A stretch of 63,384 nucleotides of DNA, filler included, from Craspedostauros australis (taxonomy: Eukaryota): NCBI GenBank assembly GCA_030167865.1. It is 17 parts of 17 records of this genome, joined end to end, with 100 filler letters (N's around TTAATTAATTAA, not from the genome) between each part and the next. Parts side by side here need not be neighbours in the genome. Positions count along the whole stretch, not along the records: positions 32,668 to 37,942 come from JALAGF010003364.1; 16 more parts are not named here. The stretch is one strand, 5' to 3'. The notes under the pieces were generated by a model. The model was given only the letters and a program-made list of their open reading frames with translations, had not been told where the DNA came from and ran no database searches. Below, piece after piece: positions 22,585-54,411 of the stretch (the first letter of the stretch is position 1; every line of letters begins with the position of its first letter). Both the position numbers and the translations under genes were made by a program.

Positions 22585-23063
22585 TGAGCATCTGCATAGG
22601 ACAGCAATGAATGAGATCTGCGCAATGACGAAACGCGGTTGAGATCAAATCAGTCCCAGCAGCAGCCAAGTGCGATGGTGGACTGGTGCAAGCGTGGCAT
22701 AATAACTTCAAGAACCCTACTCCGCTCCACTGTAGAACCTTGCGTTCTGATCAGAAGTCTATCTACGAAGACGATTGCAACCCATGTATGGCACGCTCAG
22801 CAGTGTATGTGCGTGTGTATCTGTTTGTCATCAAAGATGACCCAACAATAGTTCTGCCCGTGTGTTCGAAAAACGGCATCATGATGCGACGAATGGTGAA
22901 AAGAAATAAAATGGCCTCCTGCACATGACACAGGGCATGCCGACAGCCGCTCACAATCTACAGTGATTCCAGAGGACCTGCTTTGCGCCAAGGATGCGAT
23001 GCACAAGAGGTCGAACGAACGGGACGAAACAAAACGAAACAATGGGTGACGACCCAAAAGAAA

Positions 23064-23136
23064 TGAGGCCAACCGGATTTGAACCGATGACCTTCGGGTC
23101 TGGAATCCGAAATTCTACCAACTGAACTATGGCCCC
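23064..23136 (-). tRNA. tRNA-Trp (CCA), 73 nt
   Basis: GGGGCCA TA GTTC AGTTGGTA GAAT T TCGGA TTCCAGA CCCGA AGGTC ATCGG TTCAAAT CCGGT TGGCCTC A folds as a cloverleaf; T-rich tract downstream and AT-rich box about 30 nt upstream. Confidence 0.93.
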
Positions 23137-24965
23137 ACTCGCTGTGAATAGAGTGGAAAAACAACTATAATTAACGTATTCCTGATTGTCATTGTTCTCT
23201 CGTTCCAGAAAACTATCTCATGGAATACATCATGCATGTGCCAGCAGACTTTACCCCTGCCGCCACTGGCCCCCAAGGGGACCAGTTTTGAGCAAGCCTT
23301 CAGTTTTTGCTGATCCATCAATGCCTAGCCACAAAGCCATTGCACGCCTCTCAGCTTGCATCGACGTAGTCCTGCATTGCACCCTCTGTTGGCAAGTTCT
23401 GTGATTGGAAGCCTACGTTCGTGGAAGACAGTGTTGTTGATAGTCGTTCTGTTTGCTATTTCATTATGTTACGTTGGCACTCCAATCCTCTTGGTGTCCG
23501 TTCTCTTTCCCAATGCTCTTGGTGTGTTTATCTGTTTCGTAGATTGGGTCTCCCACTATGAGTCGGTACGTGAGAGGCTCTCTCGCTGCTATCATATTCT
23601 CTTTCTCTCTCTCGCTCAATATTCCACGTTCATGTTACACAATACTCCGTGTTTGATGCATACTCTGCATTCAACACTCTGCTAGTTCACTACTGGTTCC
23701 TACTCCATGAGTACTTACCACTTGATCTCTTCTTCGTGCATCCATGATCTCGAGGCTCTTCGGTCATCGAATCTTTACCTTCTGCTTCTGACATGGAGAC
23801 AGATGTTGACATGGTAACATGATGACATCCTGTTGACGTCAGTTGTCGTCCTTCTGCTCTCCAGATGTCACGTTCCATCAATGATGCGATGGTCTGTCAG
23901 ATGATATCATCATCTGAGGTTTAGTTGGGAGGTACCTCAAGATTCGCTTGGTACCATACGTTTCCATTGATGGATGGACGGACGATGTTTCTAATTCTCT
24001 CAGAAATTGTTGATTGCAAACTTCCTCCAGAAATTCTGCTCATTTTTGTGTGTTCCATTTCCACTGTGATTCTGACAAGTCACAGCATACTATCGACACG
24101 AATGTAGTTGTACCGTCCAAGTACGTATGAGAGAATAACGGGTGAACGATGCACATATACACGTACATCTCGACATATACACGCATGTACATCTCGAAAT
24201 ATAGTTCCCAGGACAGCTTGGATCGAGGCAATTGTGCCATTGAGTCAGCAATGGTCTGTGAATGAAGGGAGAATTTGTGGTCATCAGGGTTGGAAGAATT
24301 CATGCCAAAAGTGAATTTCAGGCAACGATGTGGGACACACAAAGATAGAAAGTAGTCTGCCCCAGAGTGAACTTCAACTGTATTTCTACCTCGTCTTGAA
24401 TCCATGAAAGATTGTTGTTTTCTGTATAGTATCGTGTGTTGAAAAGAGAGCGGCTCCTCTGCACTCGTATTAGTCATAGTAGTAGTTGTAGTAGCAGTAG
24501 TAGCAGTAGTAGTAGACTAGCCTGCGGACGATTTCTAGAGCGTGTTGTTTCGCTCCCTCTGTCCCGTTGGAATGAGACACGTCCGTCTGCCCATACATAC
24601 GTTCCCGCCAAAATTGATTTTTTCTTTCGTCGATTTGCACGTGGTCGTGAGTGTGGATTGCGCACAGGAACAACACGAGAGATGTCTTGGAGTTCTTCGG
24701 CACACGTGCCAAGTGAACACTTGCCACCTTTCCTGCTTAGGCGCGAAGAAGCTCTTCGGGTCGAGAGGGTTGGTGGGACCGCAGATGTTGGGTTCCGTGG
24801 CGTGAGGAACATCCACCTCTCCCCTCTTTGCACTCACCTTCGGCAGCCGCACGAGAGAGCGCTGGGATCACAACATAATGATAGGGTACTTTTGAAGCCT
24901 CGGCTGCGATCGAAACCAAAGCAACCAGACAGACACGCTCGCACAACGTACCAATACGCACGCGT

Positions 24966-27923: not shown

Positions 27924-30124
27924 TCTTTGGATTCCTGGATGCTGAAGATGGTGGATGCCCTCGATTTGCCGCATTCCGAGCTGAAAGTCTTGAATGACTC
28001 ATCCTCGAGTCTGGGCTTTTTGGCTACCGGGGATCCTGATGGAGAGTTGTCTTCGATCTCGTCCATGCCTTCGATCTCTACCGAACCCATATCTTCGTCA
28101 ACGATGTAGTCAAGTTCTCCTTCGAATTCGACGTCTTCATACCCCTGTCCTGTGGCGTCCTTGGCGTACCCCGCACTCATCTCCAGGATGTTGTCGTCAA
28201 ACCAGTCGTCTGTGGAGCTGTTGATTTCCGTTCTGCACCTGATTGCGATGGAGTTCAGAATGTTCTTGGCTTGGTCGTACCGATCGTCAAAGGCCACAAT
28301 GCTCAAGGCGTCTTCATCCCCGTCTGCCATGTGTGTCGTGCTGACGTCGTGAAAGTAGGGGTTTCCTTCTGGTGTCTTGTGCTGATTCAGGAATTCTCGC
28401 AGCGTGGTCGATTTTGTCTGCGCGTCTGGAGTATCGAGCGAGACGTCGCCGTCCAGCCGGAACCGCTTGAGTTGGCGCACGTAGCGCTTGTGTTTGCGTG
28501 TCATCTTCCTGAGTTTCGCTGCTGTGTCTGCTCCGATGGTGGATGTGCCTGGGTTGGGAACAAATCGGTAGTTCAACCCCCCTCTGTTGGCGTCCTTCGC
28601 GTTGAACACCTTACCCAGGGCTTTTGATACCTTCCGGGCGTGGCTAGTGTTGGCGTGCAGGTGCAGCGCAACCCATGGTTTGTTGATCCAGGTGCCAAGG
28701 TTCTTGCGGTGTTCTTCGCGCGTCTCATCTGAAACCTGACCTAGGAATTTGATTCTTCCTCCCACTTGAAGTTTGGGTTGGATTTGTTGCAGCAGCCAGT
28801 TGATCACTCCAATCGTTTGCTTTGTGTTTGTGAAGTTTCCGGAATAGGCAAGGAAGCCAACATCAGTGATGTTCTCTGCGTCCTTGAGATCTTGGACGTA
28901 GGCGTACTCTCCTGTCGAGTATCCGCCTTCCATTTCTGCTCGTCGACTGGTGAGCGCGTTCAGGTTTTGGCTGCCCCCCAGCTTCAATTGCATGTACACG
29001 TCTGATTGCTTTGCTGTCGGCTTGGCTCTGCACACGAATTTCTTCAGCTCGTCCCAGTTGGTAGGGATGGGTTCCTTTTCCGAGATGGTTCCTGCTGATT
29101 TGTGTCACTTATACCAGGGGTATATGACTAGTTTGGGCTCGATCGTCAGTGCATGGTCAAACCACAATTCAAATCTGGATTGGAAATCTCTGATCAGTGT
29201 GGAGGAGTTCTTCGGGATGGTCAGCCTGAGGTTGAAGCATTCGTTGAACTTTCTGCTGGGTGTTGCCATCATCTGGACTGAGGACTGTCTCACCCTGGTC
29301 CATGTCCCGTCGTCGCCGCTTGCATCACCTTTTGGGTTCGTCTCGTTGACTACTCCATCTGGCTCCTGAATCCTCACTTTGGTTTTTGGAGGTACTTTCA
29401 CTGTGTGTTGCGTGAGAGAGGTCTGTCTCGTTCGTTTGACCAAAATGGATTCCAGTTGGATTCCATCCATGTCGTCGTCGCTATCCGACGATGCTTCCTG
29501 TGCCATGATGACATCAGAGTATTGGCACCCCATGTGCCGGACTGCTGCTGCCCAAGCCAATGTGATCTGGTTTCGTGTCATTGACTTGTTATCAGTGTGG
29601 AGTTCCATCTTGAAGCATTCCGTCGGATCCGTTTTGGAGAGATCTGCGACCAATTGCTTGATTTTCACGTGTTCTGGTGCGTCCTGTGCGACTCTGCTCG
29701 TGCTGAATTTGTTCGTCCTGCCGTCCATCACCTTTTGGAAGAACTCTGCCAGCTCCTTGGTGCTTGGCATGTGTGCCAAAGCATTTGAACTGTCCTTTCC
29801 TTCCCATGTTGCCTTTTGGATGTACATCCGTTTGACTCTGTCGTGGAGGGATGACGGACCTTCTTCGTATACTTCAGTGGCTTTGATTGCCTTGGCGTTG
29901 GCTGCAACTTGTTTTGGGAGTTTTTTCCACTGTGTTGTTTCGGGCTCTTGCCATTGGATGGCTATCCTGCCTTGGCTCTCCATCAGTTCTGCTGCCACGA
30001 TCTTCGGATCAGGCTCTGGTGGTGGCTTGGGACCTCCTGTTGCTCCTGATGTCATGTTTCGATTCGATGGTTGCTCCGTATCGTTGGTGTTGTGCTTCAA
30101 ACTTGTGCCGTTTTTCGTCGCCAT
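27924..30124 (-). mobile_element. Non-LTR retrotransposon ORF1 (5' part) with one in-frame TGA at 29107-29105
   Basis: ORFs 29105-30124 and 27872-29035 share a frame (YPWYK*HKSAGT...). 27924-28549 is the reverse complement of 32668-33293, which leads into an APE-RT ORF2. Confidence 0.75.
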
Positions 30125-30421
30125 GATCGATTGTCGGTTCTTTTCCCTACTTGAGGAATCAGTAGAATCTGTACTGGTGTCAGTGTTTTTGCTGTTGGAT
30201 TTTCGCTTTACTAGTGTTATCGTTTGTTTGGGTTTTCTGGGTTCTCGTCGCTATGCGCTCTCTTCCTATATTCCTCTTTCTGAATGTGCTGTTGCTCCCA
30301 TGATGTTCGTATCCATGGTATATGCTCGTCCGTTGGTCATTAGAGGCAAATGTATCAACTTTCGGGCCGTTTAGAGCACTCAATGCAACGAATAATCACT
30401 CTCTACATTCGCATTGCTTTA

Positions 30422-32567
30422 TTATTCTGGTCTGCTTCTGTCGCAGATCTCCTTCCGGTGCTCCTGCAGCAACGACACCTTCTTGCTGGCACCCCATTCG
30501 TCATACAGCCGAATTGCTTCGTTGAGATGATATTCCGCACCGTCGACGTCTTGCTCCAGCAGCATGTGCTCGGCCAGCCGTTCATTGGCCAAGGCTTGGT
30601 CGTGCGGGAACCCTGTCCGCGCACAGGCCCGGATTGCATCCTGGTACATCGTGACAGCATCCATGAACGCCTTTTCTCGCTGTCTGCTCTTGTGCGCCTT
30701 CCATGCGGCTCTCTCCGCGTTGAGGATGGCGAGGCAGTGGACCGCATTTGGGTTGCCCTTGTTCACGGTACCCCGCAGTTGCTTGCGGGTTTTCTGAGCC
30801 AGCCGCTTGTACGTGCTGCGTTGGGACCGTGTGAGGCACCTGTCTTGATTAGAAGCGATTGTCATTGTGAAAGAGGTGGTAAAGAGGAAAAACATCATCG
30901 TGATGTAACCGGGCGGCGTCTTCATCTGGTCCTCGTAGGCTTCCAATGCCAGCTGGGCGGCGCCGTCATAATCTCCAAAGTACATCATCAAGAACAGCTT
31001 ACTTCGGAGCAAGTCCGTCAGCAATGTTATGTCCTTCGTTTCTTCGTGGCGTCGCATGGACGCGATTTCGTCAAACACGTCACCGACGAGCATTGTCTGC
31101 TCATCAGATCGTCCTCTCAGATTCAAGACTATCTGCCACCTGACAGATAGCTGCTCGCTTGCCTTGGCTTGGTTGAAGTCTTCGGAGACCTTTGTGTACG
31201 TTGAGAGGTCTGTGTCGAGATCTTTCAGGGACTTGGCTGTAAGAAAGCACAGGTCGAAGTAGAAGAGCAAGGCCCACATTGAGATTTGCATGTCGCCAGC
31301 AGACATGCCGTCTGGGTGGGCATCCAGCACCGGCTGCATGCAATTCTCGTATGGAATGAAGTTGTTCAATGCCAGGCCGTATGAGACGACCATCGTTCGA
31401 GCTGATACTGACTTGTCGCTGCCTGTTTTGCACCATCGTATCGCGTAGTCGGCGTAGAGCCTTGCATTCTCCCAATCATCCAAAATAGGACCTACCAGCA
31501 TCGCAAGGCCCGCGAGGGCAACTGGAGTAGAGTTGGTTCTCCCTGTCTTCATGCCGTAGTTGATGCCATCGATCGTGACGAGAGGATTTACGCCTGGATC
31601 GCAAAGAGCTGCAGACCAACTGTATTTATCCATGCTTCTAATGATGAGCTCATCCATCGGATCCTCAGACGGCTTCATTGACTCCAAATATTCCAACGTC
31701 CACTTCCTTGTGGATGCCTTCAGCTTCAGCAGTCTCATGATGACAACCATCAGTCTCCTTTTGCTACCCTTGGGATACCGATACCCCAGCTGGGCCATCA
31801 GCCCAGCACCGACCGCCATTCTATCCCTCGCTTTGCCTTGTTGGATCGAGACCATCTTCCCGTCCATCAAAACATGATACGCCCTTATCTTGTCGATCAG
31901 AGGACACTCGTCTCGCTCGATCACCATGTTGCCGTACTTCTGCATCATCTCAAACTGGCTGCTCACGTATGCGCACTCCGCGGCTGATGTGAAGAGCTGG
32001 AGGGTCATGTCGTAATGTGTTCTCCAGTGGTCGGGCGGCATCATGCCGATGGTATTTTGGAAGTACTTGAATGCTACTCGGAAGGCTGCATGCGATGCGG
32101 CGACAGTTCCAGCCTCGAAGTTGAGCATTGCGATCCTGAAGCGCCTTGTTTGGGTGATGTCGATGTCTTCTTTTGACGGCGACGACGACGATGATGACGA
32201 CGATGAGGATGGGTACTGCGGGACCATATCCAAACGGGCGTTGAGGAGATTCACCACAACGAACATTGAAACCTCGGAGTCTTCTTCTGATAGCCGATCC
32301 ATCAAGATGATTCCGATGCGATACTGGAGCTCCAGAAGGTGCATCTTCGATGGGATCATTCCCAATGCCGCCTCCTGCACCTTGTCGTGAATGAAGGAGT
32401 ACTCGGATGCGGCAGACGCCTGTGCTGGTGATGTCACGGGCGATGCTGGCGATGTGAGCTGAGGAGTAGAGCTGCTGCCGTTACCGTTGCCGTTGCCGTT
32501 GCCGTCGTCGACAATGCTACCGCCAGCATGAGACTCAATCAGTCCCTCCGCCTCATAGGTATTCAGG
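30422..32567 (-). CDS. C-terminal helical (TPR-like) region of a COG3899/AAA_16 STAND-type ATPase; 5'-truncated
   Basis: YSFIHDKVQEAA, LNFEAG..A...AAF..A..Y, DHW..HYD.TL.L...AAE, HDQALANERLA and AIRLYDEWGA.KKV.LL. Confidence 0.8.
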
Positions 32568-32667
32568 NNNNNNNNNNNNNNNNNNNNNNNNNNNNNNNNN
32601 NNNNNNNNNNNTTAATTAATTAANNNNNNNNNNNNNNNNNNNNNNNNNNNNNNNNNNNNNNNNNNNN

Positions 32668-35600
32668 GGCACATCCACCATCGGAGCAGACACAGCAGCG
32701 AAACTCAGGAAGATGACACGCAAACACAAGCGCTACGTGCGCCAACTCAAGCGGTTCCGGCTGGACGGCGACGTCTCGCTCGATACTCCAGACGCGCAGA
32801 CAAAATCGACCACGCTGCGAGAATTCCTGAATCAGCACAAGACACCAGAAGGAAACCCCTACTTTCACGACGTCAGCACGACACACATGGCAGACGGGGA
32901 TGAAGACGCCTTGAGCATTGTGGCCTTTGACGATCGGTACGACCAAGCCAAGAACATTCTGAACTCCATCGCAATCAGGTGCAGAACGGAAATCAACAGC
33001 TCCACAGACGACTGGTTTGACGACAACATCCTGGAGATGAGTGCGGGGTACGCCAAGGACGCCACAGGACAGGGGTATGAAGACGTCGAATTCGAAGGAG
33101 AACTTGACTACATCGTTGACGAAGATATGGGTTCGGTAGAGATCGAAGGCATGGACGAGATCGAAGACAACTCTCCATCAGGATCCCCGGTAGCCAAAAA
33201 GCCCAGACTCGAGGATGAGTCATTCAAGACTTTCAGCTCGGAATGCGGCAAATCGAGGGCATCCACCATCTTCAGCATCCAGGAATCCAAAGATGACAGC
33301 GCCGAGATCAAAGAAGACAAGCTGGCGACAGCCATGCGGCAAGCAAGGGAAGCACAACAAGCAGAAGCCAACAGAAAGAAAGTGGAGGACCAGAGGCAGG
33401 AACTCATCAAAAAAGACAGAATCATCGAGGAGCTGAGAGCCAAACACGCAGAAGAGGAACCCAGGAACTCAAACTCCCCCGGCTTTAGCACGGACGGGGG
33501 CCAACAAACTGATTAACACAAGGCTGGAGGAAGGGGAAGCATCAACACCCACCTCCGCAAGCCAAACGGATGCTCTCAGGGAGGAAGTGCGTCGGAATGA
33601 GCACAACCTCCAAGTCTCTTACTGGGGAGACAACCCACGTGACAAAGGACGCCATACTATACGCATCGGCGCCCTCAACGTGGGCTGTCTACTGGAAGAG
33701 ACAGGGCATTGGAAAAACAGAGACACTTGGGAATGGACAAAGAAACTACAACTCGACGTGGCAATGTTTTCCAAAATCGGGCTGAACTGGTCCAAAGTAG
33801 CGAAACGCCACTCATGGCACTCGCGGATCAAAGGCCAATACAGCTCATGGCGCCAAACGATGGCATACAACAAACAAGAGAAGATGGGACCAGTACGACA
33901 ATGGGGAGGCACGGGCTGCCTGATCATCAACGAAACAGCTGGGCGACACAAGGGATCAGCAGAGGATCCAAGGCAGCTAGGACGATGGTCAAGCATGGTG
34001 CTCCGCGGCAAAGACGACGCTATTGTGAGAATTGTAAGCGTGTACGTTCCAACCACATCAGGGAAAGGACCTCGCACGGTTGCAAACCAGCAATCAGCCT
34101 GGTTAGAGCTGCAGGGAATCACCGCCCCACCAATAGCCACCCTCATCGACGACCTGGAAGCAGAAATACAGCAATGGCACACACAAGGCGAAACGATCAT
34201 ACTGGGCGGGGACATCAACATGCAGGTTGCACACTCACAAATGGCAACAATGCTCGAGCGACAAGGCATGAAGGAAGCCATACTCAGCAAGCATCCCCAA
34301 CAAACACCGGTAGCAACGCAAGTGCGCGCAGAAACAGCAAGAGTGATAGACGGCATATGGGTCTCGGAATTGGTGGGGGTACAGAGGGCAGGATACAGCG
34401 ACTACGGAAGCTGGGACCACCGTACAGCATGGATCGAGATCTCCAGTGAAGCCATCTTCGGAGTGAGAAGCCGGCCGACCAAGAAATTCGAAGGAAGACG
34501 CCTGCAAACGAACAAGCCAGCTACAATGAAACGATACCAACAAGCGGTCAAGACCGGATATGCCAAAGCGGACCTGCGGCACCGGTCTGAAAACGTACTG
34601 GCTATGCTCAAGGATGACGGGATCATGACAGAGACACTACTCCAGGAGACAGAAGAAATCGACAAAGCCAGAAAGGAGATCATGCTCCAAGCAGAACGAG
34701 GATCCAGACGAATATTCGCGGGACGAGTACCATACTCACCGGCCGCCAAAAAAGCGGCAATGGAGAAGAAGTTCTGGGAAATCGCGTGGAGGCGACGACA
34801 GGGAAAGAGGGTGAGTGCGAGGTGGTACGACCGGGCCAAGCAGCTAGCCGGCGTACGACAGCCAACATCGCACCTCACCGCAGACGACATCCAGCAGCAA
34901 CGGAAGCTGGCCCACGAGAAGTGGAAGCAAGTGAAATGGAGTGCTCTGGCACACAGGAGAACCTTCCTTGAGCAACGTGCCGATGAGATGGCGGAAGCTG
35001 GCAACACATCCGCCAGCACAGCACTTGCCGCGATCATCGTCCGAGAAGAGACAGCAGAAACATTCTGGTCAATAAAGCGGACACTACAAGGCGGAGCCAG
35101 CAACAGCAGGGTAACCACGGTCATCGCCAAAGACGAGCATGGCGAAGAAAGAACATCCAGCAAAGAACGCGAAGTTATTGCCCACTGCATGAAGGCCAAC
35201 GAGCTCAAGTACAGGCAAGCATACGCAACACCGCTGCAAAGCGAAGTGTTCGAGCGAAGTGTGAAGCACGGAGGCATCGAAATGGCAACACGACGACACG
35301 GGCCATCCATGGACCAATACTCCCAAGACCTTCTCGCGCAGCTTCAAAACACAAGCCAATTGACGCAGTGGGACGCACGTCGCATGGAGATACCGATAGA
35401 GGAACATCAACAAGCCTGGGCCAAAGCCCGAGAACGCACCGCGTCAGGTCCCTCTGGCTTGCATTTCGGAATGTGGAAAGCAAACGCCAAAATCGAGGAA
35501 GCGGCAGCAACCGACGCCGCCATGCGCGAGATATCTCTGCGATCGGGGTACAACCTGGCTCGATGGCTGTGATGCTCTGATATCACTCTACTCAAAGAGG

Positions 35601-36692
35601 AAGGAAACTACAGGGTCGAGCGCTTCCGTACCATCAGCCTCGTCGAAGGAGATTTCAACATGAATCTGAAGAAGATTGGCAAGGAAATGATGGACCACGC
35701 CGAAGTGAATGGGCTTCTGCCAGAAGAGCAATACGGTAGCCGGAAGTGCAGAAGCGCGGCCGAAGTCAGCTTGAACAACCGACTGACAGGTGACATCATC
35801 AGAAGCACGGGACGCACGAGTTTCGTTTGCTCGAACGACGCGAAGAGTTGCTATGACCGTATGGCGCACGTGCCTCTGCAACTGAGCATGAGCAGCATCG
35901 GAGTGCCATCAGTTGTCAGCTCAAGTGTGATCGCAGCGGTGGAAACAATGCAACATCATGTGCTCACAGGATACGGTCTGTCTCGCGCCACATACCCCAA
36001 GAAGCCGCCCAAACCACAAGGGCTTCTTCAAGGCCTTGGAGTCTCGCCGGCCGGGTGGGTGGCGATGAGTTCACCGCTCATGAAGATCATGGCAGATCGA
36101 GGCTACGGATTCTCATCACAGCACCGAATCACCAGCGAATCAACTCAATTGGTATGCTTCTCATTTGTCGACGATACTTATTAGAGCACTATCGAGAAAT
36201 CACAAGGGGAGAGCAAAAGCAAAGTACCATGCCGGGATTCGAACCCGGAACCTCAGTTAGAATTACTGGTGCTCTACCGTTGAGCTACAGGCGATGCGAT
36301 TGCTGAACCGAACACAAGTGAAATTTATAGATAGTGGGGGCTACGGGAGTAACGTACTTAGCACTATTCGATTTTGTGCTGATAATACTGATATAATTCA
36401 CACCATCCAAGCCGATGCAACAGACTCAACCGGGTGCATATAGGAAGTGCAACAAGTGGTCGACACGTGGGAAGGAGTGCTCCGAGCAACGGGAGGAGCA
36501 CTGGAACCGCAAAAGAGTTACTGGTACCTATTGGCGTTCAAGTGGAATGGCAAAGCTTGGGAATACAAGCAGGAAACCGAGGTCCCTGGCAACATCAGCA
36601 TCAGGCAACCAGACAGCGAAGAAAGATCAGAGCTACAACGCCTCTCAGTCAATCAAGCGCGCAAAGCGTTAGGAGTTGTTGGAAATCCGGGG
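32668..36692 (+). mobile_element. Non-LTR retrotransposon (Ambal-like diatom LINE): ORF1 end (stop 33516) and pseudogenised APE endonuclease-reverse transcriptase ORF2
   Basis: APE motifs GALNVG, GGDIN, RVIDGIW, WDHR. RT motifs TASGPSG, RFRTISL.EGDFN, EQYGSR, NDAKSCYDR, QGLLQG, FVDDT, LRATGGAL.PQKSYWY. Stops at 35570 and 36441; insertion at 36179-36384; homology lost near 36692. Confidence 0.9.
36179..36384 (-). mobile_element. 206-bp insertion with a tRNA-like Pol III cassette (36294-36224), TAT...ATA ends and ATACT TSD
   Basis: ATACT at 36174-36178 and 36385-36389; excision restores FVDDTDIIH. A box TAGCTCAACGG, B box GGTTCGAATCC. Confidence 0.85.
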
Positions 36693-37399
36693 TTATAGTT
36701 AGTACAAAATTCTAATCTGCTGTTAGAAACTGTACCGTTTTAGAACTGTGAGCACAATCTCACTTTCTCTTCCGATTTCGTTTTCTTGGAAGGCATCTGT
36801 CGCGGTAACGACACGGGGCATCCTGTTGTCTCTTAGGTGCTTCCCTCTTCATTCATCATGCTCTGTTCTTGCTTCNNNNNNNNNNNNNNNNNNNNNNNNN
36901 NNNNNNNNNNNNNNNNNNNNNNNNNNNNNNNNNNNNNNNNNNNNNNNNNNNNNNNNNNNNNNNNNNNNNNNNNNNNNNNNNNNNNNNNNNNNNNNNNNNN
37001 NNNNNNNNNNNNNNNNNNNNNNNNNNNNNNNNNNNNNNNNNNNNNNNNNNNNNNNNNNNNNNNNNNNNNNNNNNNNNNNNNNNNNNNNNNNNNNNNNNNN
37101 NNNNNNNNNNNNNNNNNNTGTGCTGTCCTCTGAAGAAGGTGCGTCACTTGCCCATGGACATGCTGTTCTGATCGACGTCGTCGTCTGGATGGTTGCCATG
37201 GTAGGCGTGGTATCAGGACCTCCTGATCCGCCGTGGGTGTCTTCCTTACGTTACCAGAGGACAGGCTACCCTCCTCGCGGTTGTACAGGTATCAATCGCG
37301 TCCGTATGCTTAGTCATAGTCATAATGACATGGTATACAAAGGTGTGACAAATAGTCTCCGAACATGTGACGAATAATATTCAAAGCTGTGACGAACAA

Positions 37400-37467
37400 T
37401 GTTGGGAGGTGCGGCAATTACGGATATTCCGACAAAGTCGTACCCTCAATTCCTAACACACCCCCTC
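37400..37467 (-). mobile_element. Polypurine tract (GAGGGGGTG) followed by a candidate 59-bp LTR (TGTTAGGA...TCCCAACA)
   Basis: PPT abuts TG; the termini are 7/8 inverted repeats. Confidence 0.4.
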
Positions 37468-37858
37468 GGCGATCGACGCCGCCTGCATCCACACGGAGGA
37501 ACTCAAACGCAACCAATTCATCCGCAACCGTGAAGTGCCAACAACGACAACAGTCGCAAGCGAGCAAACGGTCGGAACCCGAGAAATCGGACAGGCAAGC
37601 AACTTCCCGAACGAATCACAATCCCGTCAACCTCACGGCTGACATGGTACAACGCGCCAAGGCAGCGAAGCGATCATATCTTCAGAGCAGGGCCTGGAAG
37701 AGACAGCAGGCCAGGGAGAACCTCAAGAGGCTCGGCGTGCGGCTTCAGCGATGATTCCAAGCGCGATGACAGCGGCGGTCGGTGTGGATTGACTCGGCGA
37801 GGCGCCATCCTGGATTCTCAAAGAAGGCTGTGCAGAATATGCACATCCAAGAGAACAT

Positions 37859-37942
37859 TGATAGAACACAGATGAAAGATGGGTACTTACCTCAAAATTG
37901 GGAGTGATCAAGTCCGTCAATGAAGTAGAGTGAAGCTGTGTA
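37859..37942 (-). repeat. Second copy of the LTR-like 3' terminus seen at 14945-15027, cut by the contig end
   Basis: Near-identical ~83 bp in inverted orientation. Confidence 0.8.
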
Positions 37943-38042: not shown

Positions 38043-38124
38043 TGTCATTCTTGCTCAGAGACCATGCTAATCTTCTCTGTATAATATAAGCTATTGTTTG
38101 ATGTCCTCGGTCAAAGACCGGGAC
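38043..38124 (-). ncRNA. U6: U6 spliceosomal snRNA (divergent), 3'-truncated by the contig edge
   Basis: 5' hairpin GTCCCGGTC-TTT-GACCGAGGAC, then ATACAGAGAAGATTAGCATGG (ACAGAGA box and AGC triad) and the ISL TCTCTGAGCAAGAATGACA. Confidence 0.88.
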
Positions 38125-38337: not shown

Positions 38338-39665
38338 AATGAATACATAATCGCACTAGCATGTTGCAGACAACATCCGCCTTTCATTTCTACTACTCAC
38401 CATGTTCTACTCATACATTTTCCTCTCCTTCCTTGTCTTTGAGCGCCTTTCCACGACTTGTCACGCTTTGCGCTCCGTCCTACCATACCCCCACTGTCCA
38501 GGTGCTCCCTTTCCACTCACATATTCGTAGTACTTGTACGTACAGCATGGCGCGAGGTGATCAGCCGCAAGATGTATTGCCAACATCATCACCCTGGACC
38601 AATCATACCTTCTACTGCCAGCTGTCTCTTCCTCTTCGGAAATCAAGCCAGCCATACGCCCAAGCACCCATGTGTCCATGTGCTCATGTCGGTCAAGTGT
38701 TCTCGTGGGTTTGCATCTGGCAACGGTAGTCCTCAACATTCCTCCTCTCATTCGTCAGTGACGGAGAGCAAACTGAAGAGCAACTCTGATGGAGACGTCG
38801 ACGAACGAGCGTCGAGGATGACAAGTGCTCATCTGCGCCTGAATTGCATCACATGATAAGTCGTACACCAAAGACCAATATAGCCACATCCTGTCCGGTT
38901 CGAATGGACAACCACACGGAACCCATCTTTCCTGTTGTTCTGCAACTCACAAGTTGACACCCAAGTTGACACCCAAGTCGATGCCAAAGAACAGAAGAAA
39001 GGCAAACTATCGCTCCAGGCTTCGTTCACGACCACCATCTTGCATGAACGGAATGGCCCAGACACTTCGACACCTCGTCCTTGACACAAATCCATGCTTC
39101 ACTATCGCGGTTTGAAGCAGGAAAGCCTTTCGACTATCAATGACGTGACTACATCTAAATCCACCTTTCTCAAGAGATGGTCATGATAATGTGACCTTGA
39201 TCTGAGGCGTTCGTCATCGACTATTGTGGATACAGGTGAAGAAATGTCTCCCTCTGTTTGTCCCCAACAGGCAAGACCGAGCAGAAATTGGGAACGTGAA
39301 CAGACAATAGTCTCACTTTTCCGTGCAAATCAGGATGTTCGCTTTTGGTGATCCCTTGATCGATGCAGTGCGGTACGAGCCATGTATGCTATGACCCGGC
39401 ACAACCTTGTGGATTGAACCCCAATGCAATGCAATGCAATGCAGCACACGGCATCATGATCGACAAACCCATGAGTACGAATACGCTGCAAACGCTACAG
39501 TATCATACTCTACACCCATGCATTCATGCATTCATTCATCCATTCATCCACGCGCCAATCGAATCTGCTGCTCCTCCCATAATCTCAACAATCTCAATCT
39601 TGACATTCAACAACAATCAACAACAAAACCAAATCCAACATCACTGACAATCCATCACGTCAACG

Positions 39666-42371
39666 ATGATCAAGATCAAACTATTCATTCTTAGCAGCAT
39701 CCTGGTCCACTCTTTCGTGGCAGCCAAGTCCCACCTCCGCCATGATAGGACCAAAGATGCGATCGATGAAATGTTCCTCACCTTGGAAGCCACTCGTCGG
39801 TTGAAGGCCACCATTGGCGGCAATCCTTTCGATGACGACGGCGACGTGAAGAATTCGAAGACGGGTGCCAAGAGGAACAAGACTGGTGGTATTACCCAGC
39901 AACCAACAACTTCTCCAAGTTCCGTCCTTGCGACGTTCCCAACCTCACAACCAACCGTGGAAGAGACTCCTGAACCAACTTCGCCACCGTCCAAAGCAAC
40001 ATCACCACCAACCGCCGCACCAACTGCTGCACCAACTCCAGAGATCTCCCTCAACTTCGATTCCACCATCGAGGTCATTTGCCAGCCAGATGGCACCACC
40101 ATCCTCACACCACAAGAGGCAAGGACCAAGACCATCATCTGTAACTCTGCCAAGCCATCCTGCCGCAAGGCCATCCTTGCTGTGAGGAAGTCCAAAGACT
40201 TGCAGAACTTCTTTGGATGTGCAGGAGACCTTGGTGAAGGAGCCGCACGCAAGCTCTTCAACAAGTACGCATCCAACGACATGCTGGCTGTCCAATTGAC
40301 GTTGATCGCTGCCACCAAGCCGATCCTCGTCACTGAACGACCAGATGCAATGGAAGAGGCGTGCATGACCATTGGAATGACCCAGTCACCTCCCGTCGCC
40401 GCCCCATGCTGCCAAGGATCATCCGGATGCACTTCAGTCACTGGTTCCGCCTCCAACTCTCCTCCATTCATGACCATCGCAATCATGGCATGCACCGGTG
40501 ACAGCGCATGCAAGGACATGGGGCCAAACCCCCTCATTCTTGATTCCTCCTGCACTGGAGACAGCTCATGTGAGTTGATGAATGAGAATGAGATCAATCC
40601 CTTCATCACAGGAGTCACCTTCGTTGGTGAGATGGCATGCACCACCCCTCAAGCTTGTGAGGGAGTGGGACGCCGCTCCCATGGTGATGTGACCATCCAG
40701 GCTGGTGCATGTGTTGGGTCAGAGGCATGCAATGCAGCTGGACGCCGTGTCGTGCAGAAGACCCCCATCCGCATCCGCAGCCACATCGACATCGGTCCGA
40801 ATGCGTGCGTTGGCAGCAATGCCTGCAAGGATGCCCATTCCACTGTCAACCATGGTACTGGCGGGAAGCCGGCAGGCAGCCTGACCATTGGTGCTGGTGG
40901 CTGTGCCGCCGATGGGTCATGCGAGAAGATGGGCTTCAGTGACAGGATGAGAACCGACCTCGTCGTCCCTCCTGGTGGATGTAGCAGTGTCGAAGGCTGC
41001 AGGGGATGCATGACGAAGACGGAGTGCGACCCCGACGAGGTCTACATTATCAGCGATGTCGATGGGGCCTGTCCAAAGGGAGGAAATGACACCAACAACA
41101 ATCCCACTGGTGACAAAGTGGATGAGTACTGTATTGGCAAGGACACATTGCCCACAGACTGTCCAACATTTTCTCCCACTCCTTTCCCCACACCTCTCAC
41201 GTTAGCTCCAACACCAGCTCCCACTTCGGCTCCGACATCGGCTCCAACATCGGCGCCGACTGCGTTGGCGTCAGTTGCGCCAAGCTCACAGCCTTCGCAA
41301 GAGCCTACAAGAACAAGCAGCCCAACTCTCCCTCCAGCATCCTTCACTGTTGGATGTCTCTCAACACCTGGTGACGTCACATCAATGTTCAATATGATCA
41401 TCAGCGACATCCTTTGTGATGAGGCGACAGGCACATGCGCTAACTTTGTCGCTGCAGTCGACGCCCTCAGTGACAAGGGCAAGATGATCAAGAGCATCTT
41501 TGGATGCAATGCTGCAGACCCTCCACAGCCCGTGGCATTGGACGTGGCGCAGGAACGCTTTGACAAGATCAAGAACGATTCAAGCGTCACCAGCGCATTG
41601 TTGGCGATCGCGAAGGACGACACGAAGCTCTTCACTGGTAGCGCGTCTGCTGTGACGAATGCGTGCAATGGCTCATGCTGCAGTGGTAGTAGTGATGCTT
41701 GCACCACTGAGCCTGATGGCGGCGTGATAACGGTGAGCTCAGGGTCATGTAAAGGAAAGCGCGCATGCGACGACATGCATCCTAACGCAACCATACTTGA
41801 CAGTTGCAAGGGAGACTTTGCTTGCTTTCAGTTGGGAATTTTGTCAGGAGATCAGCCAGCTACTGGTGTCAAAGTCGGGTTCAGGGTGATCGGACCAAGA
41901 GCTTGTGTTGCAGGGCAGGGTTGCAATGGTCTTGGAATGAATACCTTTGGGAATGTACGAGTGGAAGAAGGAGCATGCGACGCAATGAATGCCTGCACTA
42001 ACATTGCGAGGCGCAGCAACCAAGGATCTACAACCACGAAACCGATCGTGGTAAGTGTCTTTGTTGGAAAGAATGCGTGCCAAGGGAATTTCGCTTGTTC
42101 TGCCTTGCATCGCGTGGCATCGACCAAACTTGCAGGAAGCGTGATCATCGAAGACGGTGCCTGCTCCGGTGCCAGCGCATGCCAAGATCTTGGCAACAGT
42201 GACAGTGCAACCAATGACATCATCATCAGAGCAGGAGTCTGCACGACGCCCGCTACCTGTAACCGATGCGCCCAAGGACCATTGTGTGCGTCACCGACAG
42301 AGACGTACGTAATCGACAACGCAGCCACGGATTGCCCTGGACCAGAGCAATCTGCCTGCGCAGTGGTCTAA
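39666..42371 (+). CDS. Secreted Cys-rich repeat protein with two homologous domains and PTxAPT linkers, 901 aa
   Basis: Signal peptide, RRL site, P/T/S-rich linkers and many [IV]xxx[AS]CxGxx[AS]C-like units; no TM helix. Confidence 0.88.
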   Translation: MIKIKLFILSSILVHSFVAAKSHLRHDRTKDAIDEMFLTLEATRRLKATIGGNPFDDDGDVKNSKTGAKRNKTGGITQQPTTSPSSVLATFPTSQPTVEETPEPTSPPSKATSPPTAAPTAAPTPEISLNFDSTIEVICQPDGTTILTPQEARTKTIICNSAKPSCRKAILAVRKSKDLQNFFGCAGDLGEGAARKLFNKYASNDMLAVQLTLIAATKPILVTERPDAMEEACMTIGMTQSPPVAAPCCQGSSGCTSVTGSASNSPPFMTIAIMACTGDSACKDMGPNPLILDSSCTGDSSCELMNENEINPFITGVTFVGEMACTTPQACEGVGRRSHGDVTIQAGACVGSEACNAAGRRVVQKTPIRIRSHIDIGPNACVGSNACKDAHSTVNHGTGGKPAGSLTIGAGGCAADGSCEKMGFSDRMRTDLVVPPGGCSSVEGCRGCMTKTECDPDEVYIISDVDGACPKGGNDTNNNPTGDKVDEYCIGKDTLPTDCPTFSPTPFPTPLTLAPTPAPTSAPTSAPTSAPTALASVAPSSQPSQEPTRTSSPTLPPASFTVGCLSTPGDVTSMFNMIISDILCDEATGTCANFVAAVDALSDKGKMIKSIFGCNAADPPQPVALDVAQERFDKIKNDSSVTSALLAIAKDDTKLFTGSASAVTNACNGSCCSGSSDACTTEPDGGVITVSSGSCKGKRACDDMHPNATILDSCKGDFACFQLGILSGDQPATGVKVGFRVIGPRACVAGQGCNGLGMNTFGNVRVEEGACDAMNACTNIARRSNQGSTTTKPIVVSVFVGKNACQGNFACSALHRVASTKLAGSVIIEDGACSGASACQDLGNSDSATNDIIIRAGVCTTPATCNRCAQGPLCASPTETYVIDNAATDCPGPEQSACAVV

Positions 42372-43582: not shown

Positions 43583-44809
43583 NNNNNNNNNNNNNNNNNN
43601 NNNNNNNNNNNNNNNNNNNNNNNNNNTTAATTAATTAANNNNNNNNNNNNNNNNNNNNNNNNNNNNNNNNNNNNNNNNNNNNAACTTGTCACATGCACAA
43701 TGTCAGTAAGAACAGACAGGTTAAATCCAAACGAAGGAACAAGACCGGTGCACGCATACACACAGATGAAGACCGGAAGCGCTTTGTCACATTTATTCGT
43801 CCTGTGCGAAATTCGTCTGTTACTGTTTCCCTCGGACATTCGCACCGTTTTTTCCATCTCGCCGTTGAATCGTGGAACATGTTCTCATTTGTGCCATTTT
43901 TTCTGCGTTGGCCGGACCGAAACAGTGTTTCGACTGCGTCGCCTTTGGCGCATTCGCCCAACATGTTGGTCTGTTTGTACATACACTGCAGTTTTGAACG
44001 GATTGCTCCCTGCGTCCGGATGTGCCAGGAATGATGTTTTGGTTGTGGCAGTTCTGAACAGGCAGTTTCAGGATGAACGGTTCGAGCAACACCATTTGGG
44101 CATTTGTTAGCCCCTTTCTGCGCCAATTGACGTAATGTTGAGACTATTTTATGCCTTGGTGTCGATTTCGACCAAGAACAGCATTACTTAGACCCATTCT
44201 TGTCAATTATTGTGCAGCGAGTGACACTATTGGGGCTATCAAAGTCTTTCAAAGTGCCATTTGGGACCAACATGTCGCGTTTTGGGTTCGCTGCGACGCT
44301 ATTTAGTGTGGTTGTACACTGCGACGTGGTTCCGAGCCCATTCCTACTAGGTCGTATTCAACCGAACCAACGGACTGTCCGATCCTGCTCGGTCTTTTTG
44401 CGACTTTCCAAGTCACACGCGAATACTTCCGCGGAATGCGAAACTTCAATGTATTCGGTTTCGTCTCACCATGTGGTATTCGACCGCGCCAACGGACTGT
44501 CCGGCCCTGCTTGGTCTTTTCGCAGCATTCGAAATCATCCACGACCACTGATGCGGAATGCGTCGCTGCGATGGAACTGCGCCGGTTCTGCACGTACGCA
44601 TGGCCACGAAGGAAGGAATTTGCATCGCAATGGAGCGCACGACCGTGCTGGTTTGTTTCAGCGCACTGGAAGAACAGAGGCAACCAAACACCCACAGAGC
44701 AGCGTCACCAAACAAGGCTTGCAGTGGTATTGCCTCTCAACATGTCAAAACAACCCACTCGAACAAATCATTGCTGCCATAAAAAACACAACACTCACCC
44801 ACACAATCC

Positions 44810-45835
44810 AACATCAACACATTCGAACATCAGCACATCCTTGCACTCGCACATCAAGACACTCTCACATTTGGACATCAGCACATCCTTGCACTTGCAC
44901 ACCAAGACACTCTCACATCAGCACATCAGCACATCAGCACATCAGCACATCCTCGAACTCGCACAAAAACAGACTCTCACATTTGGACATCAGCACGTCC
45001 TCACACTGGCACATCAAGACACTCTCACATTCGGACATCACCACATCAGGACATCCTTGCACCAAAGGCGCACCCGCACTCGCACCCGCACATCAAGACG
45101 CTCTCACATTTGGACATCAGCACATCAGCACATTCGCACATCAACGGACTCTCACATTTGGACATCAGCACTTCCTCGCACTCACACATCAAGACACTCC
45201 CANNNNNNNNNNNNNNNNNNNNNNNNNNNNNNNNNNNNNNNNNNNNNNNNNNNNNNNNNNNNNNNNNNNNNNNNNNNNNNNNNNNNNNNNNNNNNNNNNN
45301 NNNNNNNNNNNNNNNNNNNNNNNNNNNNNNNNNNNNNNNNNNNNNNNNNNNNNNNNNNNNNNNNNNNNNNNNNNNNNNNNNNNNNNNNNNNNNNNNNNNN
45401 NNNNNNNNNNNNNNNNNNNNNNNNNNNNNNNNNNNNNNNNNNNNNNNNNNNNNNNNNNNNNNNNNNNNNNNNNNNNNNNNNNNNNNNNNNNNNNNNNNNN
45501 NNNNNNNNNNNNNNNNNNNNNACATCAGCACATCCTCGCACTCGCACATCAAGACACTCTCACATTCGAACATCAGCACATCCTCGCACTCGCACATCAA
45601 GACACTCTCACATTTGGACATCACCACATCAGCACATCCTTGCACATTTGCACATTCCCACATCAACGGACTCTCACACTCAGGCATCACCACATCCTTG
45701 CACTTGCACATCAAGACACTCTCACATTTGTACATCAGCACATCCTCACACTTGCACATCAAGACACTCTCACATTTGGACATCACCACATCCTTGCACT
45801 CGCACATCAAGACACTTGCACATCAGCACATTTGC
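44810..45835. repeat. ~48-bp minisatellite built from 8-bp CACATCAG-like subunits, with a collapsed N gap inside; mirrored at 46212-46445
   Basis: Unit ACATCAGCACATCCTTGCACTCGCACATCAAGACACTCTCACATTTGG. 43683-45043 is the reverse complement of 46212-47572. Confidence 0.9.
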
Positions 45836-46111: not shown

Positions 46112-47923
46112 NNNNNNNNNNNNNNNNNNNNNNNNNNNNNNNNNNNNNNNNNNNNTTAATTAATTAANNNNNNNNNNNNNNNNNNNNNNNNNNNNNNNNN
46201 NNNNNNNNNNNTGGTGATGTCCGAATGTGAGAGTGTCTTGATGTGCCAGTGTGAGGACGTGCTGATGTCCAAATGTGAGAGTCTGTTTTTGTGCGAGTTC
46301 GAGGATGTGCTGATGTGCTGATGTGCTGATGTGCTGATGTGAGAGTGTCTTGGTGTGCAAGTGCAAGGATGTGCTGATGTCCAAATGTGAGAGTGTCTTG
46401 ATGTGCGAGTGCAAGGATGTGCTGATGTTCGAATGTGTTGATGTTGGATTGTGTGGGTGAGTGTTGTGTTTTTTATGGCAGCAATGATTTGTTCGAGTGG
46501 GTTGTTTTGACATGTTGAGAGGCAATACCACTGCAAGCCTTGTTTGGTGACGCTGCTCTGTGGGTGTTTGGTTGCCTCTGTTCTTCCAGTGCGCTGAAAC
46601 AAACCAGCACGGTCGTGCGCTCCATTGCGATGCAAATTCCTTCCTTCGTGGCCATGCGTACGTGCAGAACCGGCGCAGTTCCATCGCAGCGACGCATTCC
46701 GCATCAGTGGTCGTGGATGATTTCGAATGCTGCGAAAAGACCAAGCAGGGCCGGACAGTCCGTTGGCGCGGTCGAATACCACATGGTGAGACGAAACCGA
46801 ATACATTGAAGTTTCGCATTCCGCGGAAGTATTCGCGTGTGACTTGGAAAGTCGCAAAAAGACCGAGCAGGATCGGACAGTCCGTTGGTTCGGTTGAATA
46901 CGACCTAGTAGGAATGGGCTCGGAACCACGTCGCAGTGTACAACCACACTAAATAGCGTCGCAGCGAACCCAAAACGCGACATGTTGGTCCCAAATGGCA
47001 CTTTGAAAGACTTTGATAGCCCCAATAGTGTCACTCGCTGCACAATAATTGACAAGAATGGGTCTAAGTAATGCTGTTCTTGGTCGAAATCGACACCAAG
47101 GCATAAAATAGTCTCAACATTACGTCAATTGGCGCAGAAAGGGGCTAACAAATGCCCAAATGGTGTTGCTCGAACCGTTCATCCTGAAACTGCCTGTTCA
47201 GAACTGCCACAACCAAAACATCATTCCTGGCACATCCGGACGCAGGGAGCAATCCGTTCAAAACTGCAGTGTATGTACAAACAGACCAACATGTTGGGCG
47301 AATGCGCCAAAGGCGACGCAGTCGAAACACTGTTTCGGTCCGGCCAACGCAGAAAAAATGGCACAAATGAGAACATGTTCCACGATTCAACGGCGAGATG
47401 GAAAAAACGGTGCGAATGTCCGAGGGAAACAGTAACAGACGAATTTCGCACAGGACGAATAAATGTGACAAAGCGCTTCCGGTCTTCATCTGTGTGTATG
47501 CGTGCACCGGTCTTGTTCCTTCGTTTGGATTTAACCTGTCTGTTCTTACTGACATTGTGCATGTGACAAGTTTGCACGATCGACCCTGCGCGGCATGACT
47601 CCATACCCGGTTTGTTTCAGCAATACTGCACAGAAACATGTCAGACATGACATGAAGAACAACAAATCATCCCACGTACAACATCACTCGCGCACCATCC
47701 GACATGATCCTTCTGCTGTTCGTCTGTTGCTGTGTGTGCTGTTCTTTTTCGTTTGGTTCGATTTAACCTGTCTNNNNNNNNNNNNNNNNNNNNNNNNNNN
47801 NNNNNNNNNNNNNNNNNTTAATTAATTAANNNNNNNNNNNNNNNNNNNNNNNNNNNNNNNNNNNNNNNNNNNNCAATCGGCATCAGCCGTAACAACTGCG
47901 ACGACAGTGACAACAAGAAACGG

Positions 47924-50415: not shown

Positions 50416-51789
50416 AATTGCGACAGCGCAATGTGACTACGATGAACTGTCGAAGCAGGAAAAGAGCGAGCTGATCAGGGACGTTCTTCCGCAGTGTCAG
50501 CCACAAGAGGGATCACCACCCAACACATTCACGCCATCTCAGTTGGCGGAGTTGAAGGATGCTCTGCCTGGATTCCACTGTCAATCTGCTTTCGACCAGA
50601 AGATTGCGCAGGATCGACACACAGAGCAGCACACAGAGCAACAAGACGTTGACCATGTCAAGCCAGTGGAGGGCAGCGTTGGCAACTCTCAAGATGGTTC
50701 TGATCATGACAGGCAAAACAACAAGCAGGTCACCATCACAGATTCTGCATTCTTTGAACCGGATTCATCCCTTCCAGCAACACAACCAGGTGCTGACGAG
50801 GTGCTTGGCTGGCATGGCGCACCGCGCTTTCATCGAGAGGCGCAGTTGGCCAGAGACTTCCGAAGTCGAGTGCGTTCTGGTGCATTCACTGCACCAACCA
50901 ACGGAGTCTGTCCTGGATTCATGCAGTGTAATCTGGTGGTTCTTCCGGAAGGCAAGCACGCATTCGACTTCTTGCTGTTCTGTCAACGCAATCCGCGAGC
51001 CTGTCCGTTGGTGGAGGTGTGCGATGTTGGATCGCCACATCCTCACGGCCTTGCGAAGGGCGCAGATCTGCGCACGGACGTTCCAAAGTGAGTAAACTCT
51101 CCACAGGACTGTTTTGTCGCATACATCCACGTTTATTGTTGGTTACGCGTGCATGTGTGGATAGACTAATGCTTCCTACGCACAGCCCTCCACCCATCAT
51201 CCTCACATCTCTATCTCCTCCCTCGCTCACCTATCTGTCCACCCGCTAACCCACTGGTTCCAGGTACGCAATCTATCGCGATGGGAAGCTGGTGAAGGAG
51301 GTTACTGATGCCACAGAAGACTGGCCGGAGAGGTCGGTGGCCTTCCTCATCGGATGCAGCTTCAGCTACGATGGCGCGTTGCTCGATGCCGACATCCCGC
51401 TGCGAAGTGCCGAACAGGGCAAGAATGTCCCCATGTACAACACCAGCCTCAAGTGCCGATCATCTGGTTCGTTGAATGGAACCATGGTCGTGTCGATGAA
51501 GCCGATCCCTGCACTCAAGATCTCCAAGCACATCGAGATCACATCGAAGTACACCCACGCCCACGGAGGTCCTGTGTGCGTTGGCAGCGCGGAGGCCATC
51601 GGCGTGAAGGACATTGCGAAGCCAGAATGGGGAGATGCAGTCGACATCCGTGCGGATGAAGTGCCTGTGTTTCACGCATGCGGTGTGACGCCACAGAGCA
51701 TCCTCATGCAGTCGAAGGTCCCATTCGCCATCACGCACAGCGCCGGCCACATGTTCGTCACGGATTTGCCGTCGGACATGGGATTGTAG
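50416..51789 (+). CDS. D-glutamate cyclase/YcsI (DUF1445)-family protein, 5'-truncated; intron 51088-51263 (allele 1)
   Basis: QCNLVVLP..HAFDFLLFCQRNPRACPL, DLRTDVPK|YAIYRDG, FLIGCSFS, NVPMY, AHGGPV, CGVTPQ and ITHSAGHMFVTD. Confidence 0.9.
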
Positions 51790-52093
51790 GATGGATGGAA
51801 TGCCGTCAGCATGGACGCTGCTCTGATGCAAAGATTAATAGAAACTGGAACGTAGACCATCCACCCACATACGAGTACAAGCGCGCATTTGCAGGCATGG
51901 AGAGTGTTCAGTGTTTTGTGGTTTGTGTGGACTGAAACCGCTTATGTTTCGTTCTTTCGTGAACTACTCACGCGATTTCGTAGACAGATGTTCGACAGCC
52001 ACTACGGGCATGTGACGCTGAATCAATTGTACATACTATTGCTCGTAGTACTAGTAGCGGTGCTTCAGTATTACTCCCGCCATCTCTCTCTCT

Positions 52094-54101: not shown

Positions 54102-54411
54102 GATGGATGGAATGCTGTCAGCATGGACGCTGCTCTGATGCAAAGATAAATAGAAACTGGAACGTAGACCATCCACCCACATACGAGTACAAGCGCGCAT
54201 TTGCAGGCATGGAGAGTGTTCAGTGTTTTGTGGTTTGTGTGGACTGAAACCGCTTATGTTTCGCTCTTTCGTGAACTACTCACGCGATTTCGTAGACAGA
54301 TGTTCGACATAGCCACTACGGGCATGTGACGCTGAATCAATTGTACATACTATTGCTCGTAGTACTACTAGCGGTGCTTCAGTATTACTCCTGCCATCTC
54401 TCTCTCTCTCT

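Follow-up and report, generated by a model that had tools for sequence, protein, structure and literature searches.

A 206-bp mobile element with a tRNA-like unit and RNA polymerase III signals in the reverse transcriptase motif of a diatom retrotransposon

Our analysis of DNA from the diatom Craspedostauros australis (assembly GCA_030167865.1) produced a 206-bp segment, located at positions 36179-36384 of a stretch of 63,384 nucleotides that we call the window. The segment is a discrete mobile insertion with a 5-bp target-site duplication. It lies in the catalytic core of a dead, decayed long interspersed nuclear element (LINE), directly past the residues FVDD, and its minus strand carries a tRNA-like unit together with sequence signals for RNA polymerase III (Pol III). 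The interpretation that we favor, at about an even chance, is that the element is a solo long terminal repeat (LTR) left by a small non-autonomous retrotransposon, either Helenus-like (TRIMp3) or a small, short-LTR element of Copia type.

An insertion in a reverse transcriptase active site

The insertion and the two parts of its host are as follows.

33596..36178, plus strand: host, apurinic/apyrimidinic endonuclease (APE) and N-terminal reverse transcriptase (RT) part of a decayed non-LTR retrotransposon, ending FSFVDDT (Pfam, homologues, tblastn)
36174..36178, no strand assigned: left copy of the 5-bp target-site duplication ATACT, read directly; removing one copy restores the frame
36179..36384, minus strand (sense of the tRNA-like unit): mobile element, 206 bp, delimited by the duplication, the break in homologue alignments and foreign flanks in a public data set (X1, below)
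36385..36389, no strand assigned: right copy of the duplication ATACT, read directly
36390..36812, plus strand: host, RT continuation, DIIHT...WEGVLRATGG... (homologues, tblastn)

An initial annotation of this DNA had proposed a 206-bp element with a perfect ATACT duplication at a LINE RT active site, the removal of which restores FVDDT-DIIH, and all of this proved correct. The element begins with TATTAGAGCAC and ends with GTGCTGATA, the reverse complement of which is TATCAGCAC. Deletion of 36179-36389 yields a single open frame that reads ...VCFSFVDDTDIIHTIQ... at the junction and ...QLVCFSFVDDTDIIHTIQADATD...VVDTWEGVLRATGGALEP... over a longer stretch. The restored protein runs ...FSFVDDT up to the insertion point and DIIHT...WEGVLRATGG beyond it, and aligns gap-free with the YXDD block of non-LTR proteins with APE and RT domains, which form a large family. 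Relatives of the host RT read F[AS]FVDDTDL[IV]H...WEGGLRATGG across the same point. The site motif [FY][VIA]DDTD[LIVTQ] occurs in 90 of the 150 listed homologues and a looser motif in 118; the 32 with neither include many short fragments. When five full-length homologues were compared with the window by tblastn, every alignment broke at 36178 and picked up past the element in a different frame.

The insertion thus splits the YXDD catalytic box of an APE-type RT, and residues are neither gained nor lost. Because no residue is changed, the limits of the element and the 5-bp duplication are fixed independently. Three sources agree on the ends, namely the duplication, the restored reading frame and the start of foreign flanks in X1. 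Alternative boundaries were ruled out: a duplication of TA, as for Tc1/mariner, or one of 8 bp, as for hAT, with the element starting TAGAG, would break the frame or leave unequal flanks. Helitron, Crypton and DIRS readings were ruled out by the true target-site duplication. The element has no coding capacity. Its open frame of 41 amino acids, used as a query, matched nothing among proteins of 22-72 and 73-2000 amino acids.

The host copy contains in-frame stops at 35570-35572 and 36441-36443. The open frame that ends at the element (P0002, 35573-36178) matches Pfam RVT_1 with an E value of 7.7e-7, and the open frame preceding it has a weak match to an endonuclease/RT family (Pfam, E 0.021). 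P0002 has 2465 relatives at E <= 0.001 among 1.84 billion representative proteins, many of them 1800-1930 amino acids long. Pfam analysis of five relatives found RVT_1 at about residues 700-940 in all five and an N-terminal Exo_endo_phos domain in three. The presence of both domains in full-length relatives identifies the host as an APE-type non-LTR retrotransposon. By tblastn, the host is traceable only to about 36812, which corresponds to approximately residue 1031 of the roughly 1900 in full-length relatives. The nearest Atlas cluster of the host RT with any recorded phylum is assigned to Bacillariophyta, on the basis of two members of known phylum.

The piece of the window that holds the host (32668-37942) has a 243-N gap at 36876-37118. 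Its first 626 bp (32668-33293) are 100% identical to the reverse complement of 27924-28549, so the upstream continuation of the host contig is probably the reverse complement of 27924-32567, a region with long open frames that lack Pfam matches.

Recurrence with the same ends

Additional copies were found in X1, which comprises Logan contigs from one public run of one study. The run is guessed to be RNA, and is possibly DNA. The contigs show presence only, and the independence of X1 from the source of the window DNA is not established. X1 contains 26% of the sampled words of 36000-36560. Comparison of its contigs with 32668-36875 gave 13 matches. Only 3 of the 30 bins, all of them near the element, had any depth, and the 4 kb of LINE sequence around the element was matched by none of the 13. 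Identity to the element is at least 99% in seven contigs and 95-99% in the other six. Three contigs continue into unlike sequence, with three different flanks that start exactly before 36179, before 36183 and behind 36384.

The element therefore occurs with the same ends in one further context, or two, at the least, and these foreign flanks, coupled with the high identity of the contigs, mark it as a recurrent unit of a young family. A single copy only would have spoken against the initial annotation; X1 shows otherwise.

Coverage of the element in X1 is uneven, although the tool itself cautions that contig depth is an unreliable gauge and is unfit for ranking parts. Many short variant contigs cover the 85 bp at 36180-36264, with depths that sum to about 200-330 (327 at 36210). 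In the sense of the tRNA-like unit, this segment starts at the anticodon loop, takes in the T arm and a T4 stop, and reaches the end of the element. The remainder, 36265-36384, is covered by one contig at depth 37 that runs on into a flank. The step at 36264/36265 is sharp and coincides with the 5' edge of the anticodon loop.

Searches elsewhere gave no further copies. None was detected in the window by blastn (word size 7) or by an end-motif search that included the 5-bp duplication. A metagenome scan with a 22-mer from the anticodon region had 0 matches, and a scan with a 21-mer of the T arm and 3' side hit three loci, each with only 22 nt in common and none a copy of the element. Among viral scans with four patterns, three had 0 matches, and the fourth found a genuine tRNA-Glu(UUC) with 22 nt in common and no element copy.

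A tRNA-like unit with Pol III signals

The minus strand of the element carries these features.

36324..36329, minus strand: TATAAA, at -35..-30 from the start of the tRNA-like unit (element nt 56-61)
36225..36294, minus strand: tRNA-like unit, 70 nt (element nt 91-160 of 206; Rfam RF00005)
36277..36287, minus strand: A-box-like TAGCTCAACGG, from sequence reading; fits TRGCY...YGG of Helenus (PMC10886601)
36235..36245, minus strand: B box GGTTCGAATCC, from sequence reading and the Rfam alignment
36215..36218, minus strand: TTTT, candidate Pol III stop in the context TTTGCTTTTGC, 7 nt past tRNA position 72 (element nt 167-170)

The order of TATAAA, tRNA-like unit and TTTT, and the central place of the unit, are as first proposed: 90 nt lie upstream of its start and 36 nt between the TTTT and the end of the element. 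The predicted state of the cloverleaf was also borne out. The 4-bp D stem and the T arm are perfect, and the anticodon stem has 4 of 5 pairs. However, the acceptor stem has only 4 of 7 pairs, and the anticodon loop, AAUUCUA, lacks U33, such that the paired acceptor stem and U33 loop expected of a tRNA gene are both missing. The match of the Rfam tRNA model (RF00005) at 36230-36289 (minus strand) scores 35.4 bits, where the gathering score is 29, and involves model positions 6-65 only, and ARAGORN does not call the unit as a tRNA. Folding compared with shuffled sequence gave z scores of -0.32 for the unit and -1.25 for the whole element, neither of which is significant. Weak Rfam matches of YrlA and Y-RNA-like type (16 bits against gathering scores of 69-80) were dismissed. 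Judged by its sequence, the unit is not a working tRNA, yet it keeps the features that Pol III needs.

The one genuine tRNA gene in the window, tRNA-Trp(CCA) at 23063-23137 (minus strand), offers a comparison. A TATA-like TTAATTATAG precedes it at about -38..-29, and its 3' end is followed immediately by TTTCTTTTG. The cargo of the element has the same layout, and thus resembles a tRNA gene with its flanks rather than a retro-copied tRNA transcript.

The 3' half of the unit resembles a tRNA-Glu(UUC) (L004), the one comparator used, and has 22 nt in common with it, whereas the 5' half is unlike it. Together with the unpaired acceptor halves and the depth step at the join, this likeness of one half suggests, as a lead only, that the unit may be a chimera of two tRNA halves or part of a modular family. 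The left-end motif TAGAGCAC (36182-36189) is exactly complementary to the D-arm segment 36269-36276, so that base pairing between the 3' tail of the element and its D arm would be possible in an RNA.

The short, non-coding element, with its A and B boxes in a tRNA-derived unit, recalls tRNA-derived short interspersed nuclear elements (SINEs) of the SINE2 type, and the genome has APE-type LINEs. A LINE RT could have copied the element, as an atypical SINE or as a SINE-like retroposon of modular build, in which case the 5-bp duplication would be one draw from a variable range. The depth of about 200-330 over 36180-36264, against 37 elsewhere, resembles the 3'-end excess of retroposed families or a shared 3' module, and the last 4 nt differ in one X1 copy. 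However, the depth step is sharp rather than graded, and contig depth is unreliable. SINEs have a tRNA-related head with an internal promoter at their 5' end, a tail and variable duplications, whereas here the unit is central and has its own stop. Starting at nt 91 of 206, it would give a Pol III transcript without the first 90 nt, and yet another copy has exactly the same 5' end. The TTTT falls 36 nt short of the 3' end, an A-rich or simple-repeat tail is absent at both ends, and a search of the upstream 90 nt for a second decayed tRNA monomer, as in a twin SINE, found none at E values up to 10. We therefore consider a SINE very unlikely.

Terminal structure

Four short repeats lie at or near the ends.

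36179..36189, plus strand: left terminal inverted repeat TATTAGAGCAC (end-anchored score)
36376..36384, plus strand: right terminal inverted repeat GTGCTGATA (end-anchored score)
36185..36192, plus strand: subterminal direct repeat AGCACTAT, first copy (repeat family D1)
36360..36367, plus strand: subterminal direct repeat AGCACTAT, second copy (repeat family D1)

The imperfect inverted ends described initially are present, with 9 of 11 positions matching and a 2-nt indel, but their significance depends on the test. The end-anchored score was matched by 19 of 5000 random 206-bp segments of the window; in an alignment with free ends, 935 of 5000 segments did as well as the element, which is not significant. 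The second AGCACTAT copy and GTGCT at 36375-36379 could form a hairpin stem of 5 bp.

The element ends TA...TA, in place of the 5'-TG...CA-3' that is canonical for LTRs. The same ends are found in two other X1 copies and are therefore not a product of decay. The initial annotation was right to call them non-canonical, but they are less of an oddity than it supposed: TA...TA ends are rare but documented as a minor type of Copia LTR, in lotus, Arabidopsis and grape (PMC9804982).

Some of these properties are those of a MITE (a miniature inverted-repeat transposable element), in this case a non-autonomous cut-and-paste DNA transposon that would have captured a tRNA gene with its TATA and T-run and been moved by a transposase that makes 5-bp duplications. 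MITEs are likewise small, with sharp, identical ends and a duplicated target, and they carry terminal inverted repeats, of which the element has a candidate pair. The element is non-coding and has the same sharp ends in all copies seen. The pair TATTAGAGCAC / TATCAGCAC reaches an end-anchored score that few random segments equal, and the direct repeat AGCACTAT and an inverted copy lie close to the ends. A unit laid out like the tRNA-Trp locus, with a TATA-like sequence near -30 and a T-run, fits capture from DNA and not from RNA.

On the other hand, the inverted repeat is very short and imperfect, and without anchoring of the ends it does not stand out. Duplications of 5 bp are rare among superfamilies with terminal inverted repeats, being made by Transib, a few hAT-like groups and Ginger2. 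MuDR, PiggyBac, Harbinger and Crypton are not known to make them. These are the DNA transposon superfamilies listed for two model diatoms (PMC5859163, PMC2806351). No transposase was found in the window by Pfam among 41 open frames of at least 200 amino acids, with six more on the host contig excluded or scanned apart. The part of the literature covered by our search described no MITE with a full tRNA gene. We regard a MITE as rather unlikely.

A candidate solo LTR

The duplication is fixed and short, and the ends are sharp and common to the copies, which indicates a DDE-type integrase or transposase rather than target-primed reverse transcription. The 206-bp segment would have been inserted by such an enzyme through a 5-bp staggered cut. 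If the element is a solo LTR, its minus strand would be the LTR sense, with a U3 region that includes TATAAA (nt 1-90), the tRNA-derived unit, and a short U5 region (nt 171-206). The A and B boxes of the unit would recruit Pol III. Recombination between two LTRs would then have left a single one between the copies of the duplication. The tRNA-like unit would act as a promoter or be a passenger, being unfit to serve as a tRNA.

A duplication of 5 bp is the norm for Copia and other LTR elements. Copia elements dominate the repeat content of diatoms; they make 5-bp duplications (for example, ACAAG) and have LTRs of 153-844 bp, and TG/CA ends are missing in 3 of 26 diatom Copia families (PMC2806351). 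The TATA-type Copia LTRs of lotus are short, with a mean of 229 bp (PMC9804982).

Two X1 flanks bear on this reading. In the tRNA sense, a stretch rich in purines (8 of 9) that resembles a polypurine tract stands before one copy, and TGGTA, which resembles a primer-binding site, lies 7 nt past the last aligned base of another copy; both were noted post hoc on 30-nt consensus ends. Their mutual orientation is correct, and they are a weak hint in favor of a solo LTR.

Several observations weigh against a solo LTR. A paired copy, primer-binding site or polypurine tract was not seen in one molecule in the window or the X1 contigs, and the ends are TA...TA rather than TG...CA. The copy with the TGGTA flank deviates in its last 4 nt, a difference not expected between identical LTRs, and the upstream 120 bp is on a single X1 contig of single-copy depth, unlike two identical LTRs in DNA. 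Moreover, the TTTT right after the tRNA-like unit would end a Pol III transcript at about 80 nt, before any internal region. Finally, an 8-nt subterminal direct repeat with an inverted copy at the ends is often found where transposases bind MITE ends, and, together with an inverted repeat whose significance depends on anchoring at the ends (19 compared with 935 of 5000 segments), fits a MITE.

The self-terminating arrangement allows another explanation. Instead of being an LTR remnant, the element may be a DNA-level carrier of a complete, self-terminating Pol III gene (TATA, A and B boxes, and T4), with a tRNA-like unit that is a chimera of two tRNA halves joined at the anticodon loop, and may spread a tRNA-like small RNA of about 80 nt, or TFIIIC-binding sites, in a diatom genome. 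Such a transposon bearing a Pol III gene would have no described counterpart, and we judge it decidedly unlikely.

More generally, the insertion could be an unclassified mobile element, such as a carrier that spreads a self-contained Pol III gene, or could reflect a non-mobile event such as filler DNA at a break. The features leave its superfamily undefined, and its cassette is complete and has its own terminator. However, filler DNA gives neither a clean 5-bp duplication nor recurrence with the same ends elsewhere, and all of the features seen are explained by known classes. We rank this explanation as the least probable of those considered here.

The idea with which the initial annotation closed, of an LTR or MITE that bears a Pol III cassette, is thus reasonable and partly supported.

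Comparison with known elements

If the element is a solo LTR, the closest counterpart may be Helenus (TRIMp3; Kojima 2024), whose LTRs of 120-323 bp contain a tRNA-like unit that is non-functional and in which the A and B boxes are conserved (PMC10886601). Helenus elements make 5-bp duplications in fungi and plants (4-6 bp overall) and are often left as solo LTRs (PMC10886601). Both Helenus and the element are short and non-coding. The element has TAGCT...CGG where Helenus has the box A consensus TRGCY...YGG, and GGTTCGAATCC where Helenus has the box B sequence GGTTC. Its 206 bp, its non-working unit and its 5-bp ATACT duplication, which is known from one copy only, all fall within the description of Helenus in the text of that study. 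In contrast to Helenus, the element is known as a single unit without a demonstrated second LTR, primer-binding site or polypurine tract, and it ends TA...TA. Also, the upstream TATAAA and the immediate T4 make its unit resemble a whole gene.

Cassandra and Ajax similarly have a small-RNA gene with a Pol III promoter inside the LTR, with a terminator in Cassandra and 5-bp duplications in Ajax. However, their cargo is 5S and not tRNA, and their hosts are land plants and nemerteans. The initial annotation had cited Ajax as the family with a tRNA, but the names were swapped: Helenus bears the tRNA and Ajax the 5S (PMC10886601). Copia LTRs that end TA...TA and the CoDi elements of diatoms resemble the element in their 5-bp duplications and short LTRs (mean of 229 bp in lotus, 153-844 bp in diatoms). 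In contrast to it, these LTRs belong to coding elements that have promoters for Pol II, and the sources reviewed report no tRNA-like unit in them. A difference from MITEs in general is the tRNA gene copy that the element carries.

Helenus is known from fungi, six animal phyla and Selaginella, and the main text of its description has no mention of diatoms or stramenopiles (PMC10886601). Our literature search on follow-ups to Helenus/TRIMp3 and on SINEs, TRIMs (terminal-repeat retrotransposons in miniature) and MITEs of diatoms found no such diatom element in the text covered, with supplements and Repbase/Dfam outside its scope. An automated annotation of one diatom lists 13 copies as 'putative SINE', 27 as 'TRIM/LARD' (the latter term denoting large retrotransposon derivatives) and 235 as MITE, in each case with no detail (PMC5859163). 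Thus, the C. australis element is probably a tRNA-bearing non-autonomous LTR-type element in a lineage in which such elements are not reported.

Other features of the window

The window consists of 17 small contigs chained by N44-TTAATTAATTAA-N44 linkers (for example, at 32568-32667), and features on different pieces are not physically linked. Its genes, which include Las1, DnaJ, SDR, MFS, U6 snRNA and tRNA-Trp, are those of a eukaryote. The U6 snRNA match at 38043-38118 (minus strand) scores 46.6 bits against a gathering score of 44; as its 3' part extends into linker Ns, the gene is truncated by a contig end. An open frame of 907 amino acids at 39648-42368 (plus strand) has DUF7640 as its only match (E 5.8e-7).

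In addition to the ends at the host piece described above, piece ends that are 100% identical in reverse complement are 1866-4275 and 15823-18232, 43683-45043 and 46212-47572, and 55046-56093 and 57222-58269; the first of these and the host pair span the range of 626-2410 bp. The neighboring pieces 50416-52627 and 52728-54945 are 99.1% identical over 2218 bp, and are likely allelic or an assembly duplicate.

Biological meaning

Copies of such elements inflate or confuse tRNA gene predictions, as reported for rust fungi (PMC10886601). They may also disperse promoters for Pol III, or sites for TFIIIC, across an algal genome that is compact. The insertion in the catalytic motif of the LINE is clean and datable, and could mark recent activity of the family.

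If the element is of the Helenus type, a stramenopile alga would join the fungi, animals and single lycophyte in which TRIMp3 elements, whose LTRs bear small-RNA genes, have so far been found. This extension would come with non-canonical TA...TA ends, and would support repeated independent origins of such elements.

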